19,618 nucleotides of DNA. Source: a virus. Taxonomy: Duplodnaviria; Heunggongvirae; Uroviricota; Caudoviricetes. The stretch is from positions 1-19,618 of IMG/VR virus record IMGVR_UViG_2526164662_000035; one strand, written 5' to 3'. Positions 3,217 to 19,207 of this stretch are shown here, piece by piece. The notes under the pieces are model-generated. The model was given only the letters and a program-made list of their open reading frames with translations. It had not been told where the DNA came from and ran no database searches. Within the stretch, counting starts at the first letter, position 1; each line of letters opens with the position of its first letter. The translations under genes and the position numbers were made by a program.

Positions 3217-3236
3217 TATGCTTATCACTTAAAGAC

Positions 3237-4106
<870 letters not shown>

Positions 4107-4184
4107 CTAACCCTTTGAATTTACATAGCGCAAAAAGATACCTTTCCTCATAATGTGAGCTAATTTTATGTTTCGTTTGATGAT

Positions 4185-4251: not shown

Positions 4252-4381
4252 CTTTATCAATGACTTATCTCCCGACTTCCCGCCTTGCTTTTCCTAAACA
4301 GAACAATCGTAGAATATTCTTGAAGGGTTAGATCGTCACTGTTTTCTGTTCGATACTGTGACATTCAGCACTTGATTCGCT

Positions 4382-4585: not shown

Positions 4586-4835
4586 CCTAGTTATGTTTTA
4601 TGAAAACTTGATATCATATAAGTGTCTTACTTATTGGCTGTAAATAAGTTTTTCCTAAGGAATTGTTTCTTGAGTATCATTTGTAACTGTAACGGAATTT
4701 ATAATCCTTTGCTTTATTGTTACGGTATTTTTTATCACACCCTATTTTTTATGTGGTTTTTTATACTGAAGTTTGGCAAAGTGAACTTTATATGCATATA
4801 CTTCATCCTGGTTTCAGTTAAATTGGGTGGATGAT

Positions 4836-5579: not shown

Positions 5580-5583
5580 TCAT

Positions 5584-5848
5584 TGTTCTTGCCCCCTTAT
5601 TTCCAGACAGGGGGTGTATCTTAAGTTAACGTTACCCGCTGACGTCGATATTCTCGCGGAGAGCGATAACCCAACGCACTGTGCGGATGGTTTTCATTGT
5701 AATGTTCGATCGCCACTGCAAGATTATGCAATGCCGTTCTTACATTCGGTTTCGGCATGAACGCGATGTAGTCTTCCTTCATCGTTTTCACGAATCTTTC
5801 TGCCATTCCATTACTCTGAGGACTGCTGATTACCCATGAGGAGTACAA
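5584..5848 (-). mobile_element. IS3-family (IS2-like) insertion sequence remnant: transposase C-terminal fragment plus terminal inverted repeat
   Basis: The minus-strand ORF 5621-5848 reads ...[27 protein letters not shown]...[19 protein letters not shown], which is the end of a DDE integrase-type OrfB. After the stop, ...tgtctggaaataagggggcaagaaca resembles the IS2 end (...TGTCTGGAAATATAGGGGCAAATCCA, from memory). The rest of the IS is missing. Confidence 0.75.
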
Positions 5849-6068
5849 TTAAACGGGTTAATCAGTTTCTCCATTTGAAAGAAAAAAGACTTCTGTACTG
5901 TTTGATATCACCGCTATTTTCTTATTTTCTGTGCAGGTCGTAGTGGGACAAAACTGAGACACATAAGGCCTCACAATGGCTTGCAAGGCTTTACATGTTT
6001 TGATGTGGTGGGACGTGTGAGCGCAGTGTTGATGGGGTAATACTTTGAATTAGAAGCGGATTCTTATG

Positions 6069-6114
6069 ATTCGTAATGCGAAGGTCGTAGGTTCGACTCC
6101 TATTATCGGCACCA
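6069..6114 (+). other. thrW: partial tRNA-Thr(CGU) (thrW): 3' 46 nt from the anticodon loop to CCA; att remnant
   Basis: attcgtaatgcgaaggtcgtaggttcgactcctattatcggcacca equals the 3' part of E. coli thrW as I recall it. The upstream sequence does not match the 5' half (GCCGATATAGCTCAGTTGGTAGAGCAGCGC). Confidence 0.85.
6096..6114 (+). repeat. attL core: 19-bp direct repeat (thrW 3' end)
   Basis: It is identical to 19063-19081. Confidence 0.8.
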
Positions 6115-6721
6115 TCAAGAAAATCAATAACTTAGCTTAACTTCTCTAAGAAATTGTATCTTCTGTTATCACTTACAAACGCCTATACGTTGTTATGGGC
6201 TTTGGTAGTGTAACACGTATGGGCGAGTAGTTCCCAGGCTCAACCTCGTAACAAGTTCCTTTGAAGCTGGAAGACGTGCCACCGTCTCTAAACCTTCTAC
6301 CAAAACTCTTAGCAAGATGTTCCACACCTGGCGCGGTGTCCAATGATGCTACACGTCGAGATGACGTCGCAGAGGATAAACAGGCTAAATGATGGGAAGA
6401 GTTTTAAGTGCAATAGTGGATTAAAGCCCACCTCTTCAAAACCTAACTTGATCGGGAAAGAATCAAGCTCTAGCACGGTTTCGTCCACCGGAGTACAACG
6501 GGTGCCTGATAAGAGAAGAACTGCTAAGACTTCATAGCTTTTGTGAAAAAGCCCTTTTTAGTGGATATGCCTACGGCGCTTATTTTTTGGTATAACCATC
6601 AAAGGCGCTTTATGGCTCCTATTGTCTTGAAAATGTATCTTTACTTGTATTGTGTTTTATGCGTAGTCTCCCTGTGTAGTATGTAACTTGTTAATTTTCA
6701 TATGAATACAGAGGCAACACG

Positions 6722-6874
6722 ATGAAAAACATTGCAGCTATAAAACGTAATAACCGCAAGATTCACGCTCGTAAGTTCCTGTCTACGCCAGAGGGAAAAG
6801 CCTGGCTAGAGCGTAAACAGCGAGAGAACGAAGAAAGAAAACTCCTTAGTGAGTTGAAATGGCTTAAGGATTGA
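6722..6874 (+). CDS. small basic hypothetical protein (50 aa)
   Basis: The ORF encodes MKNIAAIKRNNRKIHARKFLSTPEGKAWLERKQRENEERKLLSELKWLKD. A GAGG lies about 8 nt upstream of the ATG, and a strong hairpin follows the stop closely. It falls below the 60-aa cutoff of the ORF track. Confidence 0.4.
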   Translation: MKNIAAIKRNNRKIHARKFLSTPEGKAWLERKQRENEERKLLSELKWLKD

Positions 6875-6883
6875 ATCACCAGT

Positions 6884-6927
6884 AGGCGCATAACACATCC
6901 AGCAATCAAAGATGTGTTTGTGCGCCT
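6884..6927 (+). terminator. long hairpin downstream of the 50-aa ORF
   Basis: aggcgcataacacatc (6884-6899) pairs with gatgtgtttgtgcgcct (6911-6927) across an 11-nt loop. The stem is about 16 bp with one bulge. There is no clean U-tract; T-rich sequence begins about 20 nt later. Confidence 0.45.
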
Positions 6928-7019
6928 GATAGTGAAATTATTAAAGTTTTTTAGTTAATGTAGCCATTGCATGAACGATGATCGCTAGTGAATCGATTTT
7001 ATCTCGAGGGGTAAAATAG

Positions 7020-7115
7020 ATGAGGTATATGATGGTAACAATTACAGCTAAAGTAATTGTGGTTCTGCAGGTTTTTAAAATGGATAAGATAAAGCGCATA
7101 GATACCCCCTATTGA
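7020..7115 (+). CDS. candidate small hydrophobic peptide (31 aa)
   Basis: The ORF encodes MRYMMVTITAKVIVVLQVFKMDKIKRIDTPY, and GAGGGG lies about 8 nt upstream of the ATG. The only support is the SD-like sequence and the peptide composition. Confidence 0.2.
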   Translation: MRYMMVTITAKVIVVLQVFKMDKIKRIDTPY

Positions 7116-7424
7116 TTTAACAACAACAAGGTATCATTTATTTTTTATTGCATGCAATGTGCAAATTTTCACATATAATAGCTTACTATTCACTTTGCAT
7201 GGTGTCAACAAGATGATGTGTTGTTTTGTTTGATTTGTTCAAGATAATATTTCATTTTCTCATCTATATAACTTGTGTTTTAGATAATTTCACTAATTGT
7301 AAAAGTTACGTATTGCTTAATAGCTGCCTTTTTATCTGAAATCGGCGCAAACGTGATCAATGTTTAACGCGAAGATCAGCGGCGTCAGGTCCACGCAGCG
7401 ACAATTCTCAAATATCAGGAGGCA

Positions 7425-7976
7425 TTACGCTTCCTGCTCTTTCTTGATACGTTGCACCGTCTGTGTGCTGACACTGAAATCTTTTGCTACGCTCCGAATT
7501 GATCCACCATTCGCGAGAGCGGCAACAATTCCCGCTCGATCAATTGCTTTTCCATTACCACGTTTTGCTATACGTCCAGCGGCCTTAGCTGCGGCAATCC
7601 CCTCACGTTGCCGCTCAAGCATCATTTCACGTTCCATTTGTGCCACTGCTGCAAGCACTGTGAGCATCATATTCCCTGCGGGAGAGTTCTTCCCTGTCTT
7701 AAAGTCTTCTTTATGGAAATGCACAGACACGCCGCGCTCTGTTAATTGCTCAACCGTTGCCAGTAGGTCGGCTGTATTACGGCAAAGTCGATCAATGCTG
7801 TGAACATGCAAAACATCACCTTCACGCACATAGTTCATCATTGCCTCAAACTGTGGGCGCTGGGTATTCTTGCCTGACGCTTTATCTTCAAAGACTTTAT
7901 CAAGAGTTACTCCAGCTAATTGACGGTCTGTGTTTTGTTGGACAGTCGATACCCTAATGTATCCAATATTAGCCAT
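7425..7976 (-). CDS. serine recombinase, resolvase type (183 aa)
   Basis: The sequence MANIGYIRVSTVQQNTDRQ...GDVLHVHSIDRLCRNTADLL...AVAQMEREMMLERQREG...C-terminal HTH (SIRSVAKDFSVSTQTVQRI) is collinear with Tn3/gamma-delta resolvase. I prefer the start at 7976 because AAGGA lies 8-9 nt upstream, whereas the ATG at 7982 is too close to the SD. The C-terminal linker (KRGNGKAIDRAGIV) looks like a resolvase rather than an invertase (GRPPKLT). Confidence 0.88.
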   Translation of the reverse strand: MANIGYIRVSTVQQNTDRQLAGVTLDKVFEDKASGKNTQRPQFEAMMNYVREGDVLHVHSIDRLCRNTADLLATVEQLTERGVSVHFHKEDFKTGKNSPAGNMMLTVLAAVAQMEREMMLERQREGIAAAKAAGRIAKRGNGKAIDRAGIVAALANGGSIRSVAKDFSVSTQTVQRIKKEQEA

Positions 7977-7990
7977 TTTCATTTTCCTTC

Positions 7991-8110
7991 TGTGTTGATT
8001 TGTGTGTAGTGATTATTGATCGTGTTGATTAGGTGTGTAAATGACTTTTTTCACTACGAAATTCGAAGGTTTTTAGTGTGGTGATTTAGCCTGCTTTATC
8101 ACTACACGTC
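7991..8110. promoter_or_regulatory. repeat cluster upstream of the recombinase gene: candidate res site / operator region
   Basis: The direct repeat gtgttgatt(t/a)g(t/g)tgtgta occurs at about 7993 and 8022. gtgtagtgat (8004-8013) is inverted relative to atcactacac (8098-8107). Degenerate copies are tcactacg (about 8051) and agtgtggtgat (about 8073). The position immediately 5' of the resolvase gene matches the Tn3-family res layout. Confidence 0.35.
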
Positions 8111-8174
8111 TTGCATGAGAATCATGTAGTTATGCTTTGGTAAAATTAGCAAGCTATTAAATAGCGTGTTTATT

Positions 8175-8196
8175 TTGAAAAAATTAATTTTTTCAA
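8175..8196. repeat. 22-bp perfect AT-rich palindrome ttgaaaaaattaattttttcaa
   Basis: Read directly from the sequence. It is flanked by an imperfect extension (cgtgtt...aacacg). Confidence 0.9.
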
Positions 8197-8504
8197 CACG
8201 TGAAAGGAACTTGTTCGACAAATAATAGATTGATTTTTAATCAACAATTTCTGATAGTGCTCTGTAAGCCACATTACACAAGGCGCAGCGAAAGTGATGT
8301 AAAAGTGAAGAAAGCTAACATTGCACTTTTAAGCTACTTTTCATTGAATTTTTAGTATGGAATTACATAGGGATTAATCATCAATTAATCTTGAATTTAA
8401 GCCTGTTTTAGATGTTTAATTTTTGATAGCAAGAAACACTTTTAGAAGATCATTGCACAGATGTTATGTGATAAATGGATGTAACGGTAGGTCACTGTGA
8501 ACTA

Positions 8505-8641
8505 CCCCCCACAGAATTCTGTTATCCTTAACTTTTAAAGAAATATGCACCCTAACAGAAAACTGTTACCCCAACCCTAACAGAATTATGTTAGACACCC
8601 CCACAGAAAACTGTTAGCCACCCCTACAGAATTTTGTTACC
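8505..8641. repeat. five iterons (consensus CCC-N-ACAGAA-WWNTGTTA-NCC): candidate replication origin
   Basis: The copies are acagaattctgtta (8511), acagaaaactgtta (8555), acagaattatgtta (8580), acagaaaactgtta (8603) and acagaattttgtta (8626). Spacings are 44, 25, 23 and 23 bp, and each copy follows a C-run. A strongly AT-rich stretch follows at 8642-8710. Confidence 0.8.
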
Positions 8642-8711
8642 TATTAGATCAACTATCAAACTACAATTAAATTATCTTTTATAAATTCTTTTATCTTTAA
8701 AGAATAATTAT

Positions 8712-8746
8712 AGGGATACCCGTTAGGGGAGTCTTCGACTATCCCT
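8712..8746. other. compact multi-hairpin element next to the iterons and AT-rich tract
   Basis: An outer stem agggata/tatccct encloses ccc-gtta-ggg and agtc-ttc-gact hairpins. This was read directly from the sequence and the function is unknown. Confidence 0.4.
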
Positions 8747-9500
8747 TAATCTATTGGCATTCGCCAGAACCTTGCACAAGTTAGAGTGTTAGTCGTTAGA
8801 CTGCTTGTCATAACACATAGTTTTTTGTTTGTTGATGTTAGTTAGTAGATCTATGTTCGCTAATGCCGCTCACAACGAATATGTAATCTACTATGTGCAA
8901 ATAGCCTACGGCTTGCGTAAGGCTAAATAGTCTTGCGCTGTGCGCAGAACGATAATTAACTAACTACCATCTAACGATCATCAATCTATTTAAGAGAAAA
9001 TCTATTGTGCAATACTCTGACGAGTGCAATAACCTTGTGTGCTACGCGTTAGCGATGTTAGCACATAGACACAGACAACAACCAACAACAAACAAAAAGA
9101 ATGGTTTTAGTAGTTGAAGGTTAAATAAGATTCTACCGCTTAAATCAAGCCGTAGGCGAGCTAAACGTATATAAGGTAGGGAAACACTTAGCGGTAATAG
9201 ATTAGCTCGTTATAGAGTTTCTGAGAGCTTTGCAGGTATTTTATAAGATGTCTGAAATTAGATTTTATCTATCATCATCTTCCCATATACCTAACAAATA
9301 CAAAATAACCCCCTTAAATAAGCCTCTGGCGAGCTAAACAGCCATTACATAAGGGAATGTATTGTTTTTATCAAAACCTCGTTAGAACGCGTTTTAGAGC
9401 GTTTTAGACAATAATAAAGAATAGCACTACACATGAGAGCACGAATTGCTAAGAAATATCATAACTTACTGAAAATGATCAATATTTATATGGATAGGGG

Positions 9501-9529
9501 TTGACAAAAGCTTTTAGTCGTGGTAAAGT
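9501..9529 (+). promoter_or_regulatory. sigma-70-type promoter of the early operon
   Basis: TTGACA (9501-9506) and TAAAGT (9524-9529) are separated by a 17-bp spacer. This is the only near-consensus -35 element upstream of the 9650 operon. Confidence 0.55.
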
Positions 9530-9539
9530 AATATTAGGG

Positions 9540-9558
9540 ACAGAAAACATTCTTATCC
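9540..9558 (+). promoter_or_regulatory. iteron-like sequence overlapping the predicted transcription start (candidate autoregulatory operator)
   Basis: acagaaaacattcttatcc shares acagaaaac with iterons 2 and 4 and ...ttatcc with iteron 1. It lies 11 nt downstream of the -10 element. Confidence 0.4.
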
Positions 9559-9582
9559 TCTAAGTAATTAAACCAATGCACC

Positions 9583-9624
9583 GCACTTTGAAGCCCAAGG
9601 CTTGCAAGGTGTCTTTTTCTTTTA
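9583..9624 (+). terminator. intrinsic-terminator-like hairpin and U-tract in the leader of the early operon (attenuator candidate)
   Basis: The stem pairs 9584-9595 with 9599-9611 (aagcc/ggctt plus 7 more pairs, one bulged G, loop caa). It is followed by tctttttctttt. It lies between the promoter and the AGGAGG RBS at about 9637. Confidence 0.55.
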
Positions 9625-9649
9625 ACCAAATAGAATAGGAGGTTAATTA

Positions 9650-9850
9650 ATGAAGTATTACACTCCACAGGATGTAATCGAAGCCTGGAAACGTGGTGAG
9701 ATCAATCGTTTTAAAGTAAGGATGAACAGGAACACAGCGCGACGCTGTGGTTATCCAGAGCGTGAAAAATGCTTTGACGATGCACTAAAAATTATTGATG
9801 AATTAAGAAAAAATGAAAAAGGATCTGAAAAAGAATCTGAAACAGAGTAA
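9650..9850 (+). CDS. hypothetical protein (66 aa), first gene of the early operon
   Basis: A strong AGGAGG SD lies 7 nt upstream. The protein has a charged C-terminal tail and no motif I recognise. Confidence 0.6.
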   Translation: MKYYTPQDVIEAWKRGEINRFKVRMNRNTARRCGYPEREKCFDDALKIIDELRKNEKGSEKESETE

Positions 9851-9869
9851 AGAAGAGAAGGAGAAAACT

Positions 9870-10040
9870 ATGAGCGAAACTACAGAAAAGAAAAGACAAC
9901 CACGCACTTGCTTTCATATTCCTGATGAAGTATTTCAGGTGTTGTTTAAAGAAGCCAGAAGTAAACGTATCACTGTTACAGATTACATTCTTGATATGTT
10001 GAAAAGAGAGGCTGAAACACTCTCAAACAAAAGCAAGTGA
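9870..10040 (+). CDS. putative ribbon-helix-helix (CopG/Arc-like) DNA-binding protein (56 aa)
   Basis: The start at ATG 9870 follows GAAGGAG. The sequence RTCFHIPDEVFQVLFKEARSKRITVTDYILDMLKRE fits a beta-alpha-alpha RHH layout. The longer ORF from 9813 overlaps the previous gene and lacks an SD. Confidence 0.55.
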   Translation: MSETTEKKRQPRTCFHIPDEVFQVLFKEARSKRITVTDYILDMLKREAETLSNKSK

Positions 10041-10093
10041 TTTTTATCACCATAGTAGCGCCGTAGAGCGTGATTACATCAAGGAGATTTTTA

Positions 10094-10663
10094 ATGATTA
10101 ATGAAGAACAATTTGTAAAAGTTCCTATGTGGATTCTAAAAATAAGCCAAGTAAACGGGCATAAATTTACAGATAGTGCTAAAAACCTTTACTGCTATTT
10201 GAGAGGGTTTGATCGTGCATTTCCCTCTTACGCTAAGATAGGCGATGTTTTTGGCATAACACCAAGAGCAGCAGAAGAAAGGGTTAAGAAATTGCTCGAA
10301 ATGGGATTAATTATAAAAGATGCACGACCAGGAAGCTCTAACCTTTATCGAGTGCTTGATATTCCAAAAGGAGAATCATCACTACCTGATCCTTCTGAGA
10401 AAGAAGACGAATCTAATGAAATATTGAATGTTTCCGAAATCATCGTTGAAGAAGAAACACAGGAATCAGAGTTCCCTGAGCGGCCCGAAATTTTTACTTG
10501 GCTTCTTTCCCTTGATAAGAAGAAACCACCGCACGAAGAAACAGAAGATTTTGTAAAACGTGCATTAGATTCAAAGAATATCTATCTTGAGAAACAGGCT
10601 TTTCACGATCTGATAATATCTCTAAGAGAAAAAAGTGAAATATACGATTCAATACCATTCTAA
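10094..10663 (+). CDS. winged-helix DNA-binding protein, candidate replication initiator / iteron-binding protein (189 aa)
   Basis: The start at 10094 follows AAGGAG. FVKVPMWILK...AKNLYCYLRGFDRAFPSYAKIGDVFGITPRAAEERVKKLLEMGLII resembles the N-terminal wHTH of phage/plasmid Rep and replication-O-type proteins, followed by an acidic linker. It lies downstream of the iterons. The functional call is an inference. Confidence 0.55.
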   Translation: MINEEQFVKVPMWILKISQVNGHKFTDSAKNLYCYLRGFDRAFPSYAKIGDVFGITPRAAEERVKKLLEMGLIIKDARPGSSNLYRVLDIPKGESSLPDPSEKEDESNEILNVSEIIVEEETQESEFPERPEIFTWLLSLDKKKPPHEETEDFVKRALDSKNIYLEKQAFHDLIISLREKSEIYDSIPF

Positions 10664-10672
10664 GGAGAATAA

Positions 10673-10942
10673 ATGACTTATAACATCACTATAGGAAACA
10701 AAACTATTGAAATAACTGAAAGCGGATACAACATTTTAAAAGCTATTTTGGACATAGAGTTCTCACCCCCGACAGTGGTTAGCTTTTGTAGTTTAGGCGG
10801 CTACAGCGCACAACATGTGAATCATTGGTTAAACCATTTTACATCGTTCGGTGTGCTGGATTATGAAGGGATTAACCACACTACATTTCGTCTTTTGAAA
10901 TTAAACAAAGATTTTGAATTGTTTATCACAAACAATCAATAA
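10673..10942 (+). CDS. hypothetical protein (89 aa)
   Basis: An AAGGAG SD is present and the gene is tightly packed after the previous one. No motif recognised. Confidence 0.55.
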   Translation: MTYNITIGNKTIEITESGYNILKAILDIEFSPPTVVSFCSLGGYSAQHVNHWLNHFTSFGVLDYEGINHTTFRLLKLNKDFELFITNNQ

Positions 10943-11038
10943 CAACAGATCGGGCAATACATATGGCAAATGCATTTATGGCGATATTCATCGTAACAAT
11001 GGTATCAAGTTTTTATAATCCACATAAAAAGAGAGAAA

Positions 11039-11422
11039 ATGGGAAGAAAGAAAAAGAACAACTTAAAACGTATTGAAAAAAACAGTAACTTCAATTCAAC
11101 AAGACAACGTCCACCGACACACACCAATAACGAAATTCCAGGGGAAGAGATAATATTTATTCTTGAAACAGAATCCCCTGAAATAAGCGATGAAGAACAA
11201 GAAATAATCAAATCAATGCCAGGCGTTTACTTTCGCCCAAGAACAAGAAAACAAACAATAATTTCTGATGGCACTCTGAAACGTTGGCAGCTTTTAGGGT
11301 TTAGCTCCTATCATCATTTTTTGGGATTTAACGCTTTCAATAATTGTGTAGGTGGTGCATCGGAAGTCGATCTGATGGCTCATTTAGAAGCTACATTAGC
11401 TTCTAACAAACGCTCTAACTAA
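11039..11422 (+). CDS. hypothetical protein (127 aa) with a basic N-terminus and an acidic middle
   Basis: The ORF is on the operon strand and starts MGRKKKNNLKRIEK.... No motif recognised. Confidence 0.5.
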   Translation: MGRKKKNNLKRIEKNSNFNSTRQRPPTHTNNEIPGEEIIFILETESPEISDEEQEIIKSMPGVYFRPRTRKQTIISDGTLKRWQLLGFSSYHHFLGFNAFNNCVGGASEVDLMAHLEATLASNKRSN

Positions 11423-11437
11423 TAAAAGGATGGTCGT

Positions 11438-11683
11438 ATGTATAAGCGCCCAATGAAAATATTCGAAAAAGGAAAAATAATGATTGGCTATATTCAAGAA
11501 ACACAATTATTTCAGATGATCCTGTCTGATGCAAAAAACTATGCTGAGTTAATCCGACTGGCAAAAGAAACAGAAGACTACGAAGCATTAGAGCGTTATC
11601 GTGATGAAGTGCTGACGCTCAAGACACCTTTTAACATCGTATTGAATATGATTAATGATGCATTACAAGGAGAAGCCGCATAA
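11438..11683 (+). CDS. hypothetical protein (81 aa)
   Basis: An AAGGA SD is present, and the stop overlaps the next start (ATAATG at 11680-11685). Confidence 0.55.
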   Translation: MYKRPMKIFEKGKIMIGYIQETQLFQMILSDAKNYAELIRLAKETEDYEALERYRDEVLTLKTPFNIVLNMINDALQGEAA

Positions 11684-11991
11684 TGGAAGAAGATATTAGC
11701 AATGCAATGGAACAACTTTTAGATCTGACTATCTCACTACAAACAAGAATAAATCAAGCCTATTCAGATTTATGCGATTACACGCTCTCTCAATGCGTTA
11801 TTAGCTTAATGAAGGTGAATGTAAGCCTTGACGATTTTATCTCTCTGGTGAGCGATTTAGAGCTAATTGAGGACGATGCCAAGATGTGCACTCAAACCAT
11901 CACAGACACCGCCAGCACGTTAAAGGCTGCAAGTGAAGAGATTCAGCAATTAGTAGATGATTTAGCAAAAAGTGCTATTCCCTCTAAATGA
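11683..11991 (+). CDS. hypothetical acidic helical protein (102 aa), last gene of the early operon
   Basis: It is translationally coupled to the previous ORF. No motif recognised. Confidence 0.55.
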   Translation: MEEDISNAMEQLLDLTISLQTRINQAYSDLCDYTLSQCVISLMKVNVSLDDFISLVSDLELIEDDAKMCTQTITDTASTLKAASEEIQQLVDDLAKSAIPSK

Positions 11992-12263
11992 TAATGAAAA
12001 TCATTTGCATTTATATAATAAAAATGTTATATTTGTATTAAGGGTAGATAAAAAGGTTTTGACTGGTGTTAATCCTTCTACTGTCATAAATCCCTGCATA
12101 TGGAAGGTGATAGCCTCAAGGGTTGAGTGGCATTAACCTCTAACAAATATTACCTTCCATCTCTCAAGAAGTTTTAGAATAATCATAACTCCCTCTTTGA
12201 TTGTTGATTGTTTCTACGTTGTGTTGATGAATGTTGTTAGGCATTGTGCTTAATTTTGATAAA

Positions 12264-12308
12264 AGCGGGTAGGTGTTATCTCCTTGCCCTTCCCGCTCTT
12301 ATTTTTCA
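12264..12308 (+). terminator. possible terminator after the early operon
   Basis: agcggg (12264-12269) pairs with cccgct (12292-12297) and is followed by cttatttttc. The loop is long (22 nt), so confidence is moderate to low. Confidence 0.35.
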
Positions 12309-12734
12309 TCTATGCTTATCCTAAAGCTCCTTATTTTGTCCGAAAACATTAAAGAGCCTTACACTGATAGTTATATTTTATAACTATTTACTAACATCAT
12401 TAAACTCTTATTTAATGACAGAAGTTAGTAACAGAATAATCTATTAAGTTGTTGTCAAAAAACTATCATCTGCATAGCGTTAGCCGCAAGCAGAGAGAGT
12501 TTAGCTAAGAATTGTGCAATAACCTTTGGAAATATTGATAGCAAAACGGGTTTTATAGACTGCAAATCTATAATCTTTGGTTGTAAAAACGCTTTTTCTG
12601 AAACGGTAGATTATTGTTGGTGTAGTTAATCCCTATTAAAATTTAATCTGTGAGTAGATTGGAATAGTGATTCCTTAAAATCTGACTGGTGCATCCACAC
12701 CATGAAAGATAGCGGTTAGCCACCGCACCCGAAT

Positions 12735-12790
12735 AGATATTCCTGATTGATTCCGCATGTTTTCCTAAGAGCATGTTTTCAGGAATATCT
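12735..12790. repeat. 12-bp perfect inverted repeat with a 32-nt spacer
   Basis: agatattcctga (12735-12746) pairs with tcaggaatatct (12779-12790). The spacer contains two copies of gcatgttttc, and a third agcatgttt lies near 12815. Confidence 0.85.
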
Positions 12791-12894
12791 GTTCACCCTT
12801 TAAACCTATCTTTAAGCATGTTTAATAAGCATTCTTAGAGATACGTTTAAAACCTCCTCAAGGTTTTACTTATCGCTGTGTATTGCCCGACACG

Positions 12895-12954
12895 TTAATA
12901 AATCCCCCTCGCTATTCTCAGATTGAACCTCTTATAGCCTGGGGGATTTATTAA
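12895..12954. repeat. 14-bp perfect inverted repeat with a 32-nt spacer, about 30 nt upstream of the capsid-module first ORF
   Basis: ttaataaatccccc (12895-12908) pairs with gggggatttattaa (12941-12954). Confidence 0.85.
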
Positions 12955-12982
12955 ATTCCAACATAATGGAATCGTTATATAA

Positions 12983-13192
12983 ATGAAACAAGAAATTATC
13001 CTGAAATATGGCAATGAAAAGTTAACACTAACTGAAGATGTGTTGAATGCTACAGCCTACGCGCTTGGTATCACTCCCACAGAATTAAAGAAACAGTGTG
13101 AACGTCTTTATAAGGCTGAAAGCAATAAACCATCTCACCAAGATTTGATTAATGCTAAAGCTCAACAAATCAAACAATCTAAGGAAAAATAA
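12983..13192 (+). CDS. hypothetical protein (69 aa) preceding the head genes
   Basis: The ORF is on the strand of the structural genes, and its stop overlaps the next start (TAATG at 13189-13194). No obvious SD is present. Confidence 0.45.
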   Translation: MKQEIILKYGNEKLTLTEDVLNATAYALGITPTELKKQCERLYKAESNKPSHQDLINAKAQQIKQSKEK

Positions 13193-13566
13193 TGGCTATT
13201 TTAAAATTAAGCGATGTTTTCCTACATCGTAAAAGCATCACTGACGTAGTGAGCTATGCAACCGACCCTTACGCGGCTGTAGAAAGCAAAAAATTTGCAG
13301 CACTTGCACAAGATGTAACGTGCGGCGACCTCATTGATTCATCCGGCGCTAAATATGTTAGCGGCGCTGATGTTCTTGTCGTTGTGTCTGACTTCGTAAC
13401 TGCTGATTCAAATAAAACAGTTAACGTGCTTCGTGCTAATGCCGGACTCGTTTGCATCAAAGCTGATGCCCTGAATGCCGAAGGCGCTGTAAAAGAAGCT
13501 GCTATTGCAGCTCTCGCTGCTAAAGGCTTCCAGCTTGAAGGCTTCCACTCTGTTTTCACATCTTAA
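13192..13566 (+). CDS. putative head decoration protein (lambda gpD-like position and size, 124 aa)
   Basis: The protein is small and Ala/Val/Gly-rich and sits immediately upstream of a gpE-like major capsid gene, mirroring the lambda D-E order. The call rests mainly on synteny and composition. Confidence 0.5.
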   Translation: MAILKLSDVFLHRKSITDVVSYATDPYAAVESKKFAALAQDVTCGDLIDSSGAKYVSGADVLVVVSDFVTADSNKTVNVLRANAGLVCIKADALNAEGAVKEAAIAALAAKGFQLEGFHSVFTS

Positions 13567-13582
13567 GAAGGAATAAATAATA

Positions 13583-14611
13583 ATGATTATCGGAAATGAA
13601 GTGGTTGATCTTGCTCCACTGTTCGAATTAAACGACTCACGCAATTACCTACTGTCTACTCTGGATTTTACTGATCCTGTGCCTGTAGAAAGTCACAAAG
13701 TGGCTGTTTCCCAGCTTATCGAGAGCAATGAATCTCTGTTCAACCATCCTACAAGCCGTTTTAGCTCTGAGCATAACGTTACTAAGCGTGAGAACGGGGA
13801 AGAATATCTTATTGAAATCCCGTACTTTTTAAGGGAAGACCTGATCAAACCGCAGGACGTGCAAGGCAAACGCAAAGCCGGAAGCTCTATTGAAGAAACA
13901 CTGCCGGATCTGTATGCGGAATATATCGCTAAACACAATGTTGCATTCCAGCGCACTAAAGAAAGCATCCTCGCGGCTTCTCTGTTCTCTGGCAAGACAC
14001 ACACCCCGAAAACTGACGATGTTCTGATCGATTACAGCACTCTGTTCGGTGTGTCTCCAATGACTGCAACCGTTGACGCATCCAGCACCAACACAATGAC
14101 CGTATTCAAGCAATTTGATCAGATGCATACGGATATGATTGCTAAGGCACAAAGCCAGGCTGCAACCATTGAGCGTGTTGTTGTGTTCTGTAAACCTGCG
14201 GCATTCAACGCTATTCGTTACAGCGTTGGCATGGTTAATGCGTTCCAGTATGCAAGCCCTGTAGACGATGCAAACGTGGTGTTTAATGTGCGTTCTCTGC
14301 TGCCTGGTGTAACTACTTTCACCATTCCAGGAACTAACATTGACCTGATCAAAGTGACTGATCCGCTGCTGCTGGCACATATGACCGCTGACGCTGTAGC
14401 TATTCCTAAACTTGCTAAGGGGGCAGGTGTTTACCAAGCTATTTTTGGTGCGCCTTCCAGTTCATTCGATCTGCTGTCTCAAGGCGCTAAAGAGTATTAC
14501 AGCTATGCTTTCGAATCGAATCGCGGCGACGCAGTGCACGTAGTGACCGAGAATAGCTCGCTTGTGGTTAACCACGGTGTTGGCTTCTCTGTGCAGATCA
14601 CAGTAGCGTAA
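13583..14611 (+). CDS. major capsid protein, lambda gpE-like (Phage_cap_E-type), 342 aa
   Basis: Its length is nearly the same as lambda gpE (341 aa). The N-terminal NYLLSTLDF...VESHKVAV and IEIPYFLREDLIKPQDVQGKR segments follow the pattern of E-family capsids as I recall them. The C-terminal ...GFSVQITVA resembles lambda ...FVSVQLA. A GAAGGA SD is present. Confidence 0.72.
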   Translation: MIIGNEVVDLAPLFELNDSRNYLLSTLDFTDPVPVESHKVAVSQLIESNESLFNHPTSRFSSEHNVTKRENGEEYLIEIPYFLREDLIKPQDVQGKRKAGSSIEETLPDLYAEYIAKHNVAFQRTKESILAASLFSGKTHTPKTDDVLIDYSTLFGVSPMTATVDASSTNTMTVFKQFDQMHTDMIAKAQSQAATIERVVVFCKPAAFNAIRYSVGMVNAFQYASPVDDANVVFNVRSLLPGVTTFTIPGTNIDLIKVTDPLLLAHMTADAVAIPKLAKGAGVYQAIFGAPSSSFDLLSQGAKEYYSYAFESNRGDAVHVVTENSSLVVNHGVGFSVQITVA

Positions 14612-14621
14612 AAAGTGTTAA

Positions 14622-14720
14622 AGACGTTCCCCTACGTCTGGAAATAATCGGGGCAATAAGGGTAAGGGATAATCATATAAGCAAAATATGCGCTGTCTCT
14701 TGCCCTTTTTGTTTTTCTAC
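14622..14720 (+). terminator. hairpin(s) and a long T-tract downstream of the capsid gene
   Basis: A perfect hairpin agacgt/acgtct lies at 14622-14639. In addition, gggcaa (14651-14656) pairs with ttgccc (14700-14705) and is followed by tttttgttttt. The second stem has a very long loop. Confidence 0.35.
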
Positions 14721-14763
14721 TGTCTACAAACCTAAATAAAAATATATATGTGAGAGAAAACCA

Positions 14764-14961
14764 ATGAACACAGAAAATTCACAGGCATTAATTCTTAAAT
14801 CTGTAAAAGAACTGGCAGCTATTAGCGATGACTCAATAATCAATGTCAGTGCCTTATGCAGAATGCTTTCAATTGATGCAAATAATGTGCGTCAGCGTGT
14901 CTTTCAGACTGGATGTAGCACTTTCGAAGCAATCCAATATTATTGCTCTAAAAAACAATAA
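14764..14961 (+). CDS. hypothetical small protein (65 aa), possibly HTH-like
   Basis: The ORF lies between the capsid and tape-measure-like genes and has a weak GAGAG SD. No firm motif recognised. Confidence 0.45.
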   Translation: MNTENSQALILKSVKELAAISDDSIINVSALCRMLSIDANNVRQRVFQTGCSTFEAIQYYCSKKQ

Positions 14962-14995
14962 CAAATAACAATCATAATACAGGGAAACAATTAAC

Positions 14996-16837
14996 ATGTT
15001 AGAGCTAAACGTGGCACGCCTCTCGAACGTTGTCACCTTCGAAGTTAACCGACCATCATTAGAGAAAGCAAAAGCAGAAGTAGAAAAACTTCGTAAACAA
15101 ATGGCGGCGGTGAAAGATATAGAATTGCGTGTTAAGACACATAAACAATCAACCGCTAAAGCAAAAAAAGACGTAGACGATATTGCTAAAAAGCAAGCAC
15201 AGGCTGATAAAGCTAATGCTAAAGCACAATTAGCCGCTCAACGTGTAGTTGCAAGAGAACAAAAAGCCCTGGCAGCACGCAAAGAGAAGGCAGAATTAAA
15301 GCTTTTAGACGTTGGAGCAAGCATTAGTGCAATGCACCGTCTTTCTGTAGCGGAACAATATAAAGCTATTGCACAGGCTAGAGAAATTGCCCTCCAATAT
15401 GAAAGAGGCGCTATTAGTCTGGCACGTATGAATAGCCAAATGAAACGCCTACAACAGCAACAACGTAAGATTAATGGCAATCGTAACGCTCACGCTAAAG
15501 CCTATGCACCTGTTAAGGGTAGCGGGAGTATTGGCGGCGGTGCTGCGGCTGTTATGCTGGGTGGCTTAGGCGCTGGCGCTACGTATATGGCTATGAGCAA
15601 AGCCTCTGAATTTGTTACTAACAGCTTTGCGAATGCTGAAACGCTGGGTGAATTGTATAGCCGTGCGAAGCTGGGCGGTGTAGACGTTAACCAGATGAAC
15701 AATATTGAGCAATGGGCCTACAAAAACGGCGTTGATTCAATGATGGGCGAACAAGGTCGTAGGAAGTATCTCGATCAGATGAAAGATGTACGGGAGAAGG
15801 CTACTAAATCTTATGATGAGGCTGAATATGTAGTTGATAAGAAAACTGGTAAAGGAGAATGGAAGGGCGGCGATAGCGGCATCAATACTTTAATGAATGA
15901 AGGATTCCTAACTAAAAAGGATCTAAAAGACTTTGCTGATAATCCGGCTGGTCTGGTTAGTAAAGCAGTTCAGGGAATGGTAGCTAAAGGCTATTCAGAT
16001 GCACAAATCGGTAGTCGTCTGGAAGATCTGGCTGATGATTTGATGCTCACCTCTAAATACTGGACACGCTCCGCTAAAGAAGTGGAACAATCAGCACGAG
16101 AACAACGAGAATCAGGGCGCTGGGTAACGCAGGCACAACAGGAAAGCGTTATTAAATTCCGTGAACTGAATAATGCACTTAGTGGGCTTTCTGACTCACA
16201 AGGGATCGCCTTTGTTGATGGCTTTATGAAATCTCTTGATCCGAAAGTGATTGAAGAGTTTAAAAAGAGCATGGTTGCAATGCTGCCAATGTTTACCAAA
16301 TTAGGCGAGGCTATCGGCGGATTGGTTAACGCCGTAATGAAAACAATCAACTGGCTGATGAAAAACGACGAGAAGACGGAAGCTATTCAGAAGAATTTAG
16401 GGGATGCACCGCCACTATCTAACGAAGGAATGAAGCAGAATCTTTCTAATCTCACTCCTGATCAATATAAAGGCGCTGGCACCGGAACAACTAAGCCAGA
16501 TAACAGCAATTCCCTGGTTAACACTATTAAAAGCTGGTTTATGCCAGAAGAAACGGTAGGTGGGGCGCAGGCTGTAAATCAATACAGTCTCGAAGGACAA
16601 AATATTGCAAATCTGAAACAGAGTGCAGCACAACAAGCTTTCAAGGCTCCTTCTTACACCTTTGCACCTGTTATTAACTTCAATCCAGAATTACAAGTAA
16701 ATGCAGAAGTGCCGCTAACTATCGAATCAGACACCGGACGATTGAGCGAATTTATCGACTTCAAATCAAAGGCATCTTCCGCTGAGTTTAGCAAGCTATT
16801 AACGCTGGGTGTTATGTCAGGCGGGTCAACCTATTAA
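14996..16837 (+). CDS. tape-measure-like protein (613 aa)
   Basis: It has an N-terminal Lys/Ala/Gln-rich coiled-coil region, a Gly-rich hydrophobic segment (GSGSIGGGAAAVMLGGLGAGATYMAM), a long helical middle and a C-terminal ...FAPVINFNPELQVNAEVPLTIESD block. This is the typical organisation of phage tail tape measure proteins. The call rests on composition and architecture only. Confidence 0.6.
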   Translation: MLELNVARLSNVVTFEVNRPSLEKAKAEVEKLRKQMAAVKDIELRVKTHKQSTAKAKKDVDDIAKKQAQADKANAKAQLAAQRVVAREQKALAARKEKAELKLLDVGASISAMHRLSVAEQYKAIAQAREIALQYERGAISLARMNSQMKRLQQQQRKINGNRNAHAKAYAPVKGSGSIGGGAAAVMLGGLGAGATYMAMSKASEFVTNSFANAETLGELYSRAKLGGVDVNQMNNIEQWAYKNGVDSMMGEQGRRKYLDQMKDVREKATKSYDEAEYVVDKKTGKGEWKGGDSGINTLMNEGFLTKKDLKDFADNPAGLVSKAVQGMVAKGYSDAQIGSRLEDLADDLMLTSKYWTRSAKEVEQSAREQRESGRWVTQAQQESVIKFRELNNALSGLSDSQGIAFVDGFMKSLDPKVIEEFKKSMVAMLPMFTKLGEAIGGLVNAVMKTINWLMKNDEKTEAIQKNLGDAPPLSNEGMKQNLSNLTPDQYKGAGTGTTKPDNSNSLVNTIKSWFMPEETVGGAQAVNQYSLEGQNIANLKQSAAQQAFKAPSYTFAPVINFNPELQVNAEVPLTIESDTGRLSEFIDFKSKASSAEFSKLLTLGVMSGGSTY

Positions 16838-16884
16838 TCATCACTGTGGGGCGGTTTAGCCCCCTTAAATAAGGATTACAAATT

Positions 16885-17562
16885 ATGGCAATGGGTCCGT
16901 TAACCATTGGTCGCCCGACTGAGGCGAAAATCAACAGCACAAGCAACGATAGCAACGGTAGAACAACTAAAGGGGGTAACGGCTTTGCGATCATTACCTC
17001 TAACCTCGGCAGTGGTGCAAATGCTGCTTACAATGACTACCAGGCATTATCATTTGATAGCGTGGAATCGACGAAAATTAGCCGAAATGCAGACGTTACA
17101 AGCTATGCCGTCGAATCAGGATCAGAAGTTAGTGATCATGTTCAAATACGGAATAACAAGTTCACATTACAGGGGCGTATCTCTGAAACAGTATTGAAGC
17201 TCAATCCCGATATGATTAAGAATGCGGGAATTAACGGCAATAGACGTATGCTTATGCTTGAATACCTAAATCAGTTGATGGACAGTCGCCAACCTTTCCT
17301 ACTTGTCACTGAGTTAAAAAATTATGACAACGTTGTGTTAGTTGGCATGTCTTACGAAGAAGAAGCAAGCGAAAGCCTATTGTTTACTCTTGATTTTGAG
17401 CAAATCCGTCTTGTCTCTAAAGCAACTACAAGCGCAATTGCGGTAAAAACAGCACCAAATAAATCTGTAGGAGGTCAGGTTAAAATGCAGGTAAATACAA
17501 CAGAACAGAAAAATCAAAAAAGCCCAGGGCAAGACGTTGTAACGCCAGTATTTAAACAATAG
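16885..17562 (+). CDS. putative tail-tip/baseplate (Dit-like or Mu gp43-N-like) protein (225 aa)
   Basis: It lies directly after the tape-measure-like gene. The segment SFDSVESTKISRNADVTSYAVESGSEVSDHVQIRNNKFTLQGRIS resembles the N-terminal motif of Dit-like / DNA-circulation-type tail proteins (xFxxVxxxxxxxxxxVTxHPVExGxxVxDHxxxxPxxLxLxGxVS), as recalled from memory. Confidence 0.4.
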   Translation: MAMGPLTIGRPTEAKINSTSNDSNGRTTKGGNGFAIITSNLGSGANAAYNDYQALSFDSVESTKISRNADVTSYAVESGSEVSDHVQIRNNKFTLQGRISETVLKLNPDMIKNAGINGNRRMLMLEYLNQLMDSRQPFLLVTELKNYDNVVLVGMSYEEEASESLLFTLDFEQIRLVSKATTSAIAVKTAPNKSVGGQVKMQVNTTEQKNQKSPGQDVVTPVFKQ

Positions 17563-17603
17563 CCTTAAACACCTATGAAACGCTCTGTAACGAGATAATC
17601 ATA

Positions 17604-17635
17604 AAAGAGGCATTAGTCTATATTGAAGCCTCTTT
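17604..17635. terminator. bidirectional hairpin between the convergent structural operon and the integrase
   Basis: aaagaggc (17604-17611) pairs with gcctcttt (17628-17635) across a 16-nt loop. A- and T-rich flanks lie on both sides. Confidence 0.5.
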
Positions 17636-17642
17636 ATTACGT

Positions 17643-18920
17643 CTATAGCGTTGTTTTACGCCTTAAATTTGATTTTTTATTGATTGATAAGCCTTTCTCT
17701 ATTTCAGGGTAGCGTAAAAGCTCAATATATTTTTTAAGCTCTACTGGAGAAGCTGCATTCTTGCTATATGTGCGGAATGTTTCTGTATTGCCGCGCTGAT
17801 GGCCCAAAATTAAAGCTATGCGGTCCTCTGGAATTTGATTTCGATCAAGAAGCTGTGCTACTCCGTGTCTCAGAGAATGAAACACTTTCCTTTCTGTTCC
17901 CTTTTCCCCTAAAGCCTTTCGTTTAGCTCTTGTAAATCGTTGTGTATGCCACGTAGAGCGTTTACCGTCAGCACGTTCTGTAATGCTGGCGTGATAGAAC
18001 AAAAAGCCATTGTGAGGCTTTTCACGAAGAGATAACACCAATGGAGTGATAAGGCTATGCACAGGCACAAGACGTGCCGCAGCTTTCGTTTTTCCCTGTG
18101 TGATTTCAAAACACAGCACACCTTCGATCTCTTTCACATCGTCTATTGTGAGACTTGCTATCTCATTGATCCGCATACCTGTATATAAACCGATAAGACA
18201 CAAAGCCGTCATTTCTTTGTTTTCTGCTGAATTACCGGAAAATACTTGCAACACCTGCAATAGCTCTTTGTTAGAAAATGCCTCGTAGCTCTCTCTACTT
18301 TGTGCCACATCAAGCCTATGCCCTCGCCAGGGGGAGAGCGCCCTTTCTGGCGCATCGTGGTAACGTGATGAAGCTAATTCCCATAGCTGGGCCATTGGGC
18401 TGATATAATTTGCAATTGATTGTTGTGAAAGAGTTTTTTGCATGTGTTCAATCCAGCCTGTAACAGTGGTGCGGCTTACATCTTGCAATGCAATATCAGG
18501 CTTTTTACGGTAGGAGAGAAACATCTCTACCGCTTTTCTTGCCTTAGCTAAAGTGGCTGGCTTCTTCTTCGTGCTGTTAATTGTCAGGTAGATTTCAAGA
18601 ATTTTAAGCAATGACGGACACGAAGACGCTGTATCTTGCATTCTGGTAGCTGTTTTGGCGTATTTAGCCTTACTGCGTAACAGTTCCAGCGTGTTTTCTA
18701 TTGTGCTGTTTACAGGGGCAACACTCTCCCGTAAGCAATGGTATTCATCTGCAATCTGATCACGCTTTCGACGTGCCACACGAAGATTACTTGTGTGTAG
18801 ACTTCTGACAAACGTCCTTTTTCCTTCAAAAAAGGGCTGCATATACACAGGCAGCGTGATCCTTAAATAGTAGTTACCGTAAGAATCACAGATTAAGTAT
18901 TGGTTAGGCTTGTATCTCAT
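17643..18920 (-). CDS. tyrosine recombinase / phage integrase (425 aa from the preferred start)
   Basis: The catalytic signature is present: ...LYTGMRINEIASL..., ...HSLRHGVAQLL..., ...ILGHQRGNTETFRTYSK (R...HxxR...H...Y). I prefer the start MRYKPNQY at 18920, which has GGAG 5 nt upstream; the ORF is open to 19007. The gene lies about 140 bp from the right att repeat. Confidence 0.9.
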   Translation of the reverse strand: MRYKPNQYLICDSYGNYYLRITLPVYMQPFFEGKRTFVRSLHTSNLRVARRKRDQIADEYHCLRESVAPVNSTIENTLELLRSKAKYAKTATRMQDTASSCPSLLKILEIYLTINSTKKKPATLAKARKAVEMFLSYRKKPDIALQDVSRTTVTGWIEHMQKTLSQQSIANYISPMAQLWELASSRYHDAPERALSPWRGHRLDVAQSRESYEAFSNKELLQVLQVFSGNSAENKEMTALCLIGLYTGMRINEIASLTIDDVKEIEGVLCFEITQGKTKAAARLVPVHSLITPLVLSLREKPHNGFLFYHASITERADGKRSTWHTQRFTRAKRKALGEKGTERKVFHSLRHGVAQLLDRNQIPEDRIALILGHQRGNTETFRTYSKNAASPVELKKYIELLRYPEIEKGLSINKKSNLRRKTTL

Positions 18921-19020
18921 AAAATCTCCGGCTAAAGTGTCGGAGCGTTTGTAATGTGAAAATTGATTGTGACGCATAGAAAATGATGATTTTTCTATAA
19001 GATTCAATCAATTAGTAATG

Positions 19021-19081
19021 GTCGTAGGTGATGGCATTAACACGAGATTAATCGAGTGTTTTACTCCTATTATCGGCACCA
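19021..19081 (+). other. attR region: interrupted thrW 3'-end copy (gtcgtaggt + 33 nt + actcctattatcggcacca)
   Basis: Bases 19063-19081 are identical to 6096-6114 and to the thrW 3' end. Bases 19021-19029 (gtcgtaggt) match the thrW nucleotides that precede TCG-ACTCC. The 3-nt TCG is replaced by the 33-nt gatggcattaacacgagattaatcgagtgtttt. Confidence 0.75.
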
Positions 19082-19207
19082 TTAAAATCAAAGAGTTACC
19101 CCATATTTAAATACACCACGTTTCCTCCTGTGCCGCATTTGTGCCATTGTAACCTTGGCAATTCATCAAAATACTGTTCTGACATCAGGCAGTGCAGGTG
19201 CAGCTAT

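Follow-up and report, generated by a model that had tools for sequence, protein, structure and literature searches.

A widespread chromosomal island of Escherichia coli, a probable phage satellite, carries tape measure, tail-tube initiator and capsid genes related to those of Stephanstirmvirinae

The DNA analysed here, hereafter the window, is the IMG/VR record IMGVR_UViG_2526164662_000035 (19,618 nucleotides), and its positions 6091–19085 form an island of about 13 kb in the Escherichia coli chromosome, at the thrW tRNA-Thr locus. The island is bounded by a direct repeat of the tRNA-Thr 3' end (attL and attR in Table 1), whose two copies pair at 89% identity (repeat D6), and the genome NZ_CP047378 matches the window from position 6069 on, the match beginning within its annotated tRNA-Thr. 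The genes run from a serine recombinase through five iterons, small open reading frames (ORFs), a Rep/O-like winged helix-turn-helix (wHTH) protein and several uncharacterised proteins to a 1-kb ORF-free stretch. Two gene sets follow, one made of a 69-amino-acid (aa) ORF, a 124-aa ORF and a major capsid protein (MCP), the other of a 65-aa ORF, a tape measure protein (TMP) and a tail-tube initiator, and a tyrosine integrase on the minus strand comes last. An initial annotation, made from the sequence alone, had described a 65-aa ORF preceding a tape-measure-like protein of 613 aa and a Dit-like protein of 225 aa, and all three ORFs were found at the positions it gave.

Sequence comparison identifies the 613-aa protein as a full-length homologue of gp134, the TMP of phage phi92. 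It matched PHROG 16051, 'tail length tape measure protein' (E = 6.3e-31), and the solved phi92 TMP (PDB 21vq_V; E = 4.5e-20), and its BLASTP alignment with gp134 includes residues 1–33, the middle of the protein and its very C-terminus. These matches bear out the tape-measure call of the initial annotation. The Gly-rich hydrophobic core segment that it noticed is also present, as a Gly/Ala-rich hydrophobic stretch at about residues 175–200 that it shares with the TMPs of the related phages, and an N-terminal coiled coil is predicted from composition and alignment.

The 225-aa protein belongs to the Dit_like family (PF21821; E = 1.6e-27, 96.5 bits with a cut-off of 24.2) and matched phi92 gp135 (PDB 21vq_N) with an E-value of 1e-53; weaker matches were obtained with a 'tube initiator' (9cuy_K, 3.4e-10) and with Pam3 gp17 (6.6e-4). 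Cryo-electron microscopy of phi92 has shown that gp135 is a hexameric tail-tube initiator placed on the trimeric hub, that gp134 is a trimeric TMP with residues 631–656 inside the baseplate, and that the tail consists of 24 tube/sheath rings (PLoS Pathog 2026, PMC13450770). The Dit-like family membership proposed earlier is therefore right, whereas the role that the name implies is not: by its sequence the protein is a homologue of the gp135 tube initiator of a contractile tail, predicted by homology to form a hexameric ring, and not a siphophage distal tail protein. Profile searches thus place both proteins in virion families.

Two allelic types of the initiator are found among the islands. 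The window carries type A, whose nearest phage homologue is that of Phapecoctavirus (52.6% identity), and type B (237 aa) is nearest to Justusliebigvirus (61.5%); relative to the phi92-type protein, type A lacks 9–12 residues near the N-terminus. The TMP also varies widely, its alleles being 28–87% identical to that of the window, and all of them are 608–623 aa long, while those of the phages have 659 and 662 aa. The island TMPs are 46–49 aa shorter and are without the Gly-rich and Arg/Glu-rich stretches of the phage TMPs. The segments most similar to the phage proteins are the two ends and the central domain. In the type B TMP the first 50 residues are 65% identical to phi92, with 21 of 22 residues identical at the N-terminus, compared with 9–35% for most of the sequence and at most 41% for the central domain, and the island TMPs retain the C-terminal LTLxxxSGQS motif, which corresponds to the gp134 region seen inside the baseplate. 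A length held constant across divergent alleles, together with phage-like termini, is the pattern expected of a structural ruler, and the other role that the initial annotation had considered for this protein, as a pilot or superinfection-exclusion protein, found no specific support. A mosaic TMP (L015:3990-5831, also in L016) has type B sequence at residues 1–50 and from 426 to the end and type A sequence at about residues 100–425. Its length is kept and the neighbouring initiator is of type B, so the type B C-terminus beside a type B initiator fits a functional pairing of the two proteins, although genetic linkage would explain it equally well. The TMP family is small: among 1.84 billion representatives it accounts for 69 clusters at 50% identity. 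Its best full-length matches have 596–625 aa, and the weaker full-length ones, partial in sequence match, mostly 630–668 aa, which is the size range of phage TMPs.

Adjacency and order of the two genes are the same as in phi92, where a hairpin also lies between gp134 and gp135, as helper-type phages have a hairpin terminator after the TMP gene, and the TMPs share the N-terminal 33 residues, the hydrophobic segment, the central domain and the C-terminal tail. Unlike the phi92 genes, the island copies stand without tail assembly chaperone, tube, sheath, plug, hub or spike genes. Pfam and PHROGs searches of the island ORFs revealed no terminase, portal, protease, connector, sheath, tube, chaperone, hub, spike or fibre gene. 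A tblastn search with 23 phi92 structural proteins against locus L005, which served as a stand-in for the window island (its proteins are 98–100% identical), matched the MCP, the TMP and the Dit-like protein only. The absence of tube, chaperone and fibre genes from the pair, as noted in the initial annotation, is thus corroborated. All 23 IMG/VR loci of the family have the TMP, and also the initiator and integrase where the sequence reaches far enough, and no further phi92-type structural gene was found in these loci. Searches with the phi92 chaperone by tblastn found none in any island, though a very divergent one is possible, and profiles of the 65-, 124- and 127-aa proteins gave no chaperone match among PDB sequences. 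The island TMP would therefore need the chaperone of a helper phage.

The capsid genes show a similar relationship. The MCP of the window, of the HK97 fold and lambda gpE family, is 25–27% identical end to end to the MCPs of Stephanstirmvirinae. At least three very different MCP alleles occur among the islands, one of them without a Pfam or phage match. The 124-aa protein upstream is probably a capsid decoration or cement protein, as suggested by its position and by two weak matches: the top match of its profile in the PDB was a head decoration protein (E = 0.27), and the top five Foldseek matches of its AlphaFold2 model were decoration proteins of about 123 aa from Sf14 and Bas63 (E = 0.07–0.13, TM-score about 0.4). 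BLASTP detected no similarity between this protein and phi92 gp123. A wholly different pair takes the place of the 124-aa ORF and the MCP in some islands with near-identical TMP and initiator genes (L006:6433-7862 and L003:7586-9025); the protein of 343–344 aa at the MCP position is 20% identical to the MCP of the window and has no Pfam or phage match. This indicates that the capsid module has been swapped independently of the tail module.

To place these genes among phages we searched 50,697 phage records by tblastn, and the best matches of the MCP (about 25%), TMP (about 30%) and initiator (52.6%) all fell in Stephanstirmvirinae, namely Phapecoctavirus and Justusliebigvirus/phi92, virulent myophages of about 150 kb. 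The local order in these phages is that of the island, decoration protein then MCP and TMP then initiator. Identity between island and phage proteins is 23–31% for the TMP, 45–57% for the initiator and 23–27% for the MCP, and the corresponding values between phi92 and phAPEC8 are 47%, 70% and 90%. The divergence between island and phages is far above that between two phage genera, which points to old satellite lineages and not to recent captures. Several 'Campylobacter phage' records of about 146 kb (e.g. MG065639) match the tail genes as well as Phapecoctavirus and Justusliebigvirus do, and may carry erroneous host labels. The idea of a helper-specific late promoter ahead of the capsid and tail genes of the island was set aside: helper-type phages use sigma-70-like promoters between their structural genes, with nothing distinctive.

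A non-coding segment of 83 nt next to the invertase gene (about 81% identical to 63 Stephanstirmvirinae records) also connects the island with these phages. Many island variants retain it at 85–100%, and it might serve in packaging or regulation or as an RNA element. In the phage records it is frequently close to the record ends.

The strongest link to these phages comes from the replication module. The iteron core is ACAGAAnnCTGT in the window and AGGAAATGAGTT elsewhere, with arrays of about 23-nt spacing at L006:1834-1947 and L034:3387-3432. Rep alleles are exchanged between otherwise near-identical islands and the iteron sequence changes along with the Rep allele in L006 and L034, so that Rep and origin behave as a swappable module. 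The Phapecoctavirus phage Mt1B1_P17 contains 355 nt that are 99.2% identical to window positions 10053–10407, that is, 41 nt upstream of Rep and its first ~105 codons, which documents recent DNA exchange between the island and Phapecoctavirus. The phage protein concerned, QNJ49226.1 (328 aa, L043:3042-4028), is identical to the DNA-binding domain of the island Rep at 104 of its first 105 residues, its residues ~119–210 are 88–90% identical to the DNA-binding domain of the other island Rep allele (L006 type), and residues 230–326 form an endonuclease domain of GIY-YIG type (phrog_681, 2.4e-18; Pfam MUG113/T5orf172 marginal). An intact but unannotated version of 329 aa is encoded by phage BI-EHEC (L045:1511-2500). 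By its domain composition this protein is a candidate dual-specificity anti-satellite nuclease resembling Odn of phage ICP1 (see below). The chimera of Rep domains and endonuclease is indirect but strong evidence, at the level of sequence, that these phages and the islands meet in the same cells and that selection on the phage favours attack on the origins of the islands.

Matches to the TMP-initiator region were found in 555 of 5426 complete E. coli genomes (about 10%), and 182 of these hold at least 80% of the region. At a second chromosomal site, by the ETT2 secretion-system genes, islands have the same gene order, including the serine recombinase at the same position, but a different integrase of 406 aa. 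The same gene order also occurs in Kluyvera georgiana, a Citrobacter and Klebsiella variicola; a scan of GTDB species representatives returned five loci. A relative without integrase, whose TMP is 87% identical to that of the window, was assembled as contigs of 13.5–13.8 kb in several independent runs (L003, L039, L040 and L004, from SRR31140684, ERR5014346, GCA_949767545.1 and SRR33527599), two of them with k-1 terminal overlaps. These contigs begin at different positions and are thus circular permutations, which indicates a circular molecule. They have the capsid and tail genes in common, together with a helicase-like protein of 489–492 aa with a C-terminal helix-turn-helix and an Imm_superinfect (PF14373) gene, and the circular 13.8-kb relative was not found as a deposited plasmid in PLSDB. 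A Klebsiella contig of 13,884 bp (L042, ERR6294094) was rejected as an excised circle, being an assembly break at the 43-nt att repeats, which its 17-nt terminal overlap fits. This contig includes the integrase and is a caution against reading similar island-sized contigs as excision.

The ratio of nonsynonymous to synonymous substitution rates (dN/dS) was calculated pairwise between island alleles, with dS up to about 2. It was 0.06–0.12 for the initiator, 0.18–0.23 for the TMP, 0.10 for the MCP, 0.1–0.2 for the 124-aa ORF, 0.2–0.3 for the 65-aa ORF and 0.085 for the integrase. All genes tested are under purifying selection, and the locus is not a relic. Integrases that are 98% identical (dS at most 0.14) are found in islands whose tail and capsid alleles differ by 30–40%, with dS above 1.5 for TMP, initiator and MCP, indicating that the structural modules are old and have been exchanged between backbones.

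The initial annotation knew of no satellite family that encodes its own tape measure, a statement that is now out of date. The PLEs of Vibrio cholerae encode a tail assembly chaperone, a TMP and BhuB that are 20%, 20% and 41% identical to their counterparts in ICP1 (Mathur, Boyd et al., Nature 2026, PMC12987554). In PLE11 virions the PLE TMP and BhuB are present and the ICP1 copies are not, the tails are 10 nm shorter than those of ICP1, and deletion of tmp lowers transduction by 96–99.9% in the three PLEs tested (PMC12987554). Putative tmp genes occur in some cf-PICIs and PLE-like elements (PMC12987554, Extended Data Fig. 10), and all Mycolicibacterium EPIPs carry a putative TMP (PMC12822802). 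Chimeric tails with a satellite TMP and a BhuB/Dit_like protein are thus published for PLEs and suggested for some cf-PICIs, PLE-like elements and EPIPs. We found that ICP1 BhuB (gp78) is itself a PF21821 Dit_like protein (1.2e-17), so the pairing of TMP and Dit_like protein in the island has a direct precedent. Barth et al. (eLife 2021, PMC8263062) showed that Odn of ICP1 joins the DNA-binding domain of PLE RepA to a T5orf172 nuclease and cuts PLE origins, and Odn is thought to drive the swapping of PLE replicon modules (PMC8263062).

The parallels with PLEs are extensive. Both are chromosomal satellites linked to a virulent myophage, with their own TMP next to a PF21821 protein, and in both the copies are highly diverged from those of the helper (20% and 41% in PLEs, 23–31% and 45–57% in the island). 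In both the satellite TMP is shorter than the helper's and has several exchangeable alleles, the replicon consists of a Rep gene and iterons in swapped modules, and a phage carries a nuclease (for the island, a candidate nuclease) built from a satellite Rep domain. The tail-gene order of ICP1 matches that of phi92. BLASTP found no similarity of the island TMP and initiator to ICP1 gp78 and gp79, the ICP1 counterparts of the PLE proteins. The island differs from PLEs in having its own MCP and probable decoration protein, whereas PLE reshapes the ICP1 coat with TcaP, in the lack of a detectable chaperone gene, in the absence of the initiator from some relatives (Klebsiella, Kluyvera), and in its use of a tyrosine integrase at a tRNA gene, in another host family and with other candidate helpers. 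Like Odn, the Phapecoctavirus protein is a fusion of DNA-binding sequence from a satellite Rep with an endonuclease domain of GIY-YIG type; it differs in that Odn has one DNA-binding domain, at 42% identity, and the Phapecoctavirus protein two in tandem, at 99% and 88–90%, from two replicon types.

Like cf-PICIs and EPIPs, the island has its own HK97-fold capsid protein, and some cf-PICIs and all EPIPs have a putative TMP. However, neither the complete head and packaging module of cf-PICIs (terminase, portal, protease, connectors) nor the small terminase subunit, adaptor, stopper and scaffold of EPIPs was found in the island. No P4 genes (psu/sid/delta, alpha primase) or PICI genes (alpA, primase-rep, capsid remodelling) were detected with Pfam and PHROGs in the scanned island ORFs of at least 50 aa. 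The island does not have the defining features of the cf-PICI, P4-like or classical PICI families. Tai tail-assembly-inhibition systems (PMC11364771) were discarded as counterparts, for they involve neither TMP nor Dit homologues. The literature searched, of incomplete coverage, contained no description of this island family or of any satellite of Stephanstirmvirinae.

The element combines an integrase and att sites, its own replicon and an incomplete set of virion genes, the features by which satellites are recognised, and it is very probably a phage-parasitic satellite tied to Stephanstirmvirinae. We favour, with fair but lesser confidence, the full proposal that it is an integrative, self-replicating satellite of about 13 kb that builds chimeric tails and has its proteins incorporated into them. 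This corresponds to one option of the initial annotation, that the element re-specifies the tail of a helper, and is the best-supported reading of the locus. During helper infection the trimeric TMP and hexameric initiator ring of the satellite would replace the gp134- and gp135-type proteins on the helper baseplate hub, and helper tube and sheath subunits would polymerise on this core. With 46 fewer TMP residues at 0.15 nm per residue, the resulting tails should be about 7 nm, or about two tube rings, shorter than those of the helper, and the heads would be built from the satellite MCP and the probable decoration protein. Dependence on a helper, incorporation into virions, the change in tail length and a benefit to the element are what we infer from these comparisons. 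A more ambitious version, which we advance tentatively and rate a little short of an even chance, sees the family as the E. coli counterpart of the PLE-ICP1 system. The islands would then be undescribed, widespread satellites of Stephanstirmvirinae with fully hybrid virions, in which their own capsid lattice and decoration protein are mounted on the helper portal and their own TMP and initiator in the helper tail, engaged in an arms race with dual-specificity Odn-like nucleases.

Several observations weigh against the chimeric-tail proposal. The case for helper dependence and tail incorporation is one of homology and analogy. No sequenced phage has close counterparts of the island proteins (TMP 23–31%, initiator 45–57%, MCP 23–27%), so their fit with Stephanstirmvirinae hubs, tubes and portals is uncertain and the true helper may be a relative that has yet to be sampled. 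PLEs encode a tail assembly chaperone, but none was found in the island, nor did the island reveal a terminase, a portal or a recognisable pac site. The Kluyvera and Klebsiella islands have the TMP (618 and 623 aa) but no initiator gene, so the TMP is core, and the initiator lineage-specific and dispensable in part of the family. Finally, the IMG/VR hits all come from isolate genomes, where they were called in the manner of prophages, and none is a virome particle.

The TMP and initiator might instead be dominant-negative copies that poison helper tail assembly, a population-level defence and not parts of a particle. Blocking of tail assembly by satellites and prophages has precedents in Tai (PMC11364771) and in Rta of PLE11 (PMC12987554), diverged copies of core assembly proteins might cap the tails of the helper or nucleate them wrongly, and some relatives carry the TMP only. 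A poison subunit, however, would require neither a TMP length of 608–623 aa across alleles of 28–87% identity nor helper-like termini, and the capsid and probable decoration genes next to the pair, on which purifying selection is just as strong, point to the building of a particle. None of these proteins matched a PADLOC defence family, and PLEs use their TMP as a structural part and leave interference to a separate protein. We consider this explanation unlikely, although structural and interfering roles are not mutually exclusive.

Similarly improbable, in our estimate, is that the element does build chimeric tails but on a helper from an unsampled group, Stephanstirmvirinae being merely its nearest relatives or antagonists. 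The low identities (MCP about 25%, TMP 23–31%, compared with 90% and 47% between phage genera) would agree with such a helper. Four findings tie the island to Stephanstirmvirinae itself: the island Rep domain fused to an endonuclease in Phapecoctavirus (99.2% at the nucleotide level), which implies co-infection and selection on the phage; the 83-nt segment common to 63 Stephanstirmvirinae records; the two initiator alleles that track two phage genera; and the type B TMP N-terminus with 21 of 22 residues as in phi92.

That the pair is a functionless deletion relic of a degraded myovirus prophage, as the presence of the structural module only as fragments and insertion sequences in the region in some genomes might suggest, can be dismissed as highly improbable given dN/dS of about 0.06–0.3 over dS values reaching about 2, the recurrence of one minimal gene order in ~10% of E. 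coli, at two or more sites with different integrases, in at least four genera and in free circles, nearest sequenced phages that are all virulent myophages with no complete prophage carrying these genes found, and the finding that none of the island homologues examined lies in a complete tail module, the sole full module (L033) being a genuine phage contig in a metagenome-assembled genome.

If the chimeric-tail satellite is confirmed, satellite-made chimeric tails, so far reported for V. cholerae PLEs only, would be a general strategy that extends to an unrelated element and host. The island would offer an E. coli model for why a satellite needs its own ruler and initiator ring and for how these are sorted into satellite particles. 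A satellite that supplies a replacement MCP but no portal, terminase or scaffold gene would redirect capsid assembly by a new route, and with the double Rep-domain endonuclease there would be two independent cases in which a phage has turned the origin-binding domain of a satellite against it. About one in ten complete E. coli genomes carries the family, and the candidate helpers, Phapecoctavirus and Justusliebigvirus, are frequent isolates in the search for phages to use in therapy or biocontrol of pathogenic E. coli. In such settings the island could influence phage yield, transduction host range and resistance.

Table 1. Features of the island, with positions in the 19,618-nucleotide window
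Feature	Position	Strand	Evidence or remark
attL	6091-6118	+	28-nt copy of the tRNA-Thr 3' end; left edge of the island
Non-coding segment, 83 nt	7339-7421		Just 3' of the invertase gene; ~81% identity to 63 Stephanstirmvirinae records
Small serine recombinase / DNA invertase, 185 aa	7425-7982	-	PF00239 Resolvase 1.1e-38; phrog_125 2.3e-62
Iteron array, putative origin for the Rep-like protein	8504-8642	.	Five ~23-nt repeats, core ACAGAAnnCTGT
Rep-like / O-like wHTH replication initiator (by sequence), 189 aa	10094-10663	+	RefSeq start; longest ORF from 10070; phrog_270 1.2e-8
Core family protein, 127 aa	11039-11422	+	Homologues of 30-49% in E. coli, Kluyvera and Citrobacter islands
69-aa ORF, first of the capsid gene set	12983-13192	+	Position kept across variants, 29-43% identity
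Probable decoration/cement protein, 124 aa	13192-13566	+	Directly upstream of the MCP gene, like phi92 gp123
MCP, HK97 fold / lambda gpE family, 342 aa	13583-14611	+	PF03864 6.3e-18
Conserved small protein, 65 aa	14764-14961	+	Same position in E. coli, Kluyvera, Citrobacter and Klebsiella islands
TMP, phi92 gp134 homologue, 613 aa	14996-16837	+	phrog_16051; PDB 21vq_V; end-to-end BLASTP
Short GC hairpin GGGGCGGTTTAGCCCC and motif CCCCCTTAAATAAG	16848-16873	+	Between the TMP and initiator genes; read from the sequence, repeat D2
Tail-tube initiator (Pfam Dit_like), phi92 gp135 homologue, 225 aa	16885-17562	+	PF21821; PDB 21vq_N, 9cuy_K
Hairpin	17604-17635		Between the convergent initiator and integrase genes; minimum free energy -19.3 kcal/mol over 96 nt, z -2.4
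Tyrosine integrase, 454-aa ORF	17643-19007	-	PF00589 4.3e-17; DUF6538
attR	19058-19085	+	Second copy of the tRNA-Thr 3'-end repeat

Among the small proteins, the 65-aa ORF is probably a small, possibly winged, HTH protein and not a chaperone-like one, judging from a weak wHTH Pfam match of its Kluyvera homologue (3.4e-4) in a conserved alignment, and it may have a regulatory role; it showed no similarity to phi92 gp133. The 69-aa ORF matched no Pfam or PHROG family. For the 127-aa protein no Pfam, PHROG or PDB match was obtained, and its AlphaFold2 model (pLDDT 55) was unusable. PADLOC returned no match for the TMP, the initiator, the 65-aa ORF, the MCP and five other island proteins, and a weak Csa3-like HTH match for the Rep-like protein (E = 1.2e-3).

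The bidirectional hairpin that the initial annotation placed after the pair is real, with an A-run and a T-run on its flanks. A simple terminator scan did not call it, so its function as a bidirectional terminator is plausible from the sequence but not backed by that scan. No Rfam match was found in the window. The 1-kb stretch at 11992–12982, between the replication and uncharacterised genes and the capsid genes, has no ORF of at least 50 aa, and a comparable gap is present in relatives. In the position after the TMP gene, the Kluyvera island has a 157-aa protein with a weak HEPN-like match (L029:11908-12381) and the Klebsiella island only a 42-aa ORF (L041:13622-13951). The motif (C)CCCCTTAAATAAG is found upstream of the early small ORFs (9306–9322; also 9135–9166 / 9308–9339) and again directly upstream of the initiator gene (16857–16873), and its recurrence suggests that it may be a shared regulatory site. 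Positions 1–6068 of the window belong to a separate island, inserted in tandem upstream of the partial tRNA-Thr copy, which carries an AraC-family regulator (4827–5579), a LEM-3-like GIY-YIG protein (3237–4061, minus strand) and an acyltransferase-like fragment (1872–2525, minus strand).

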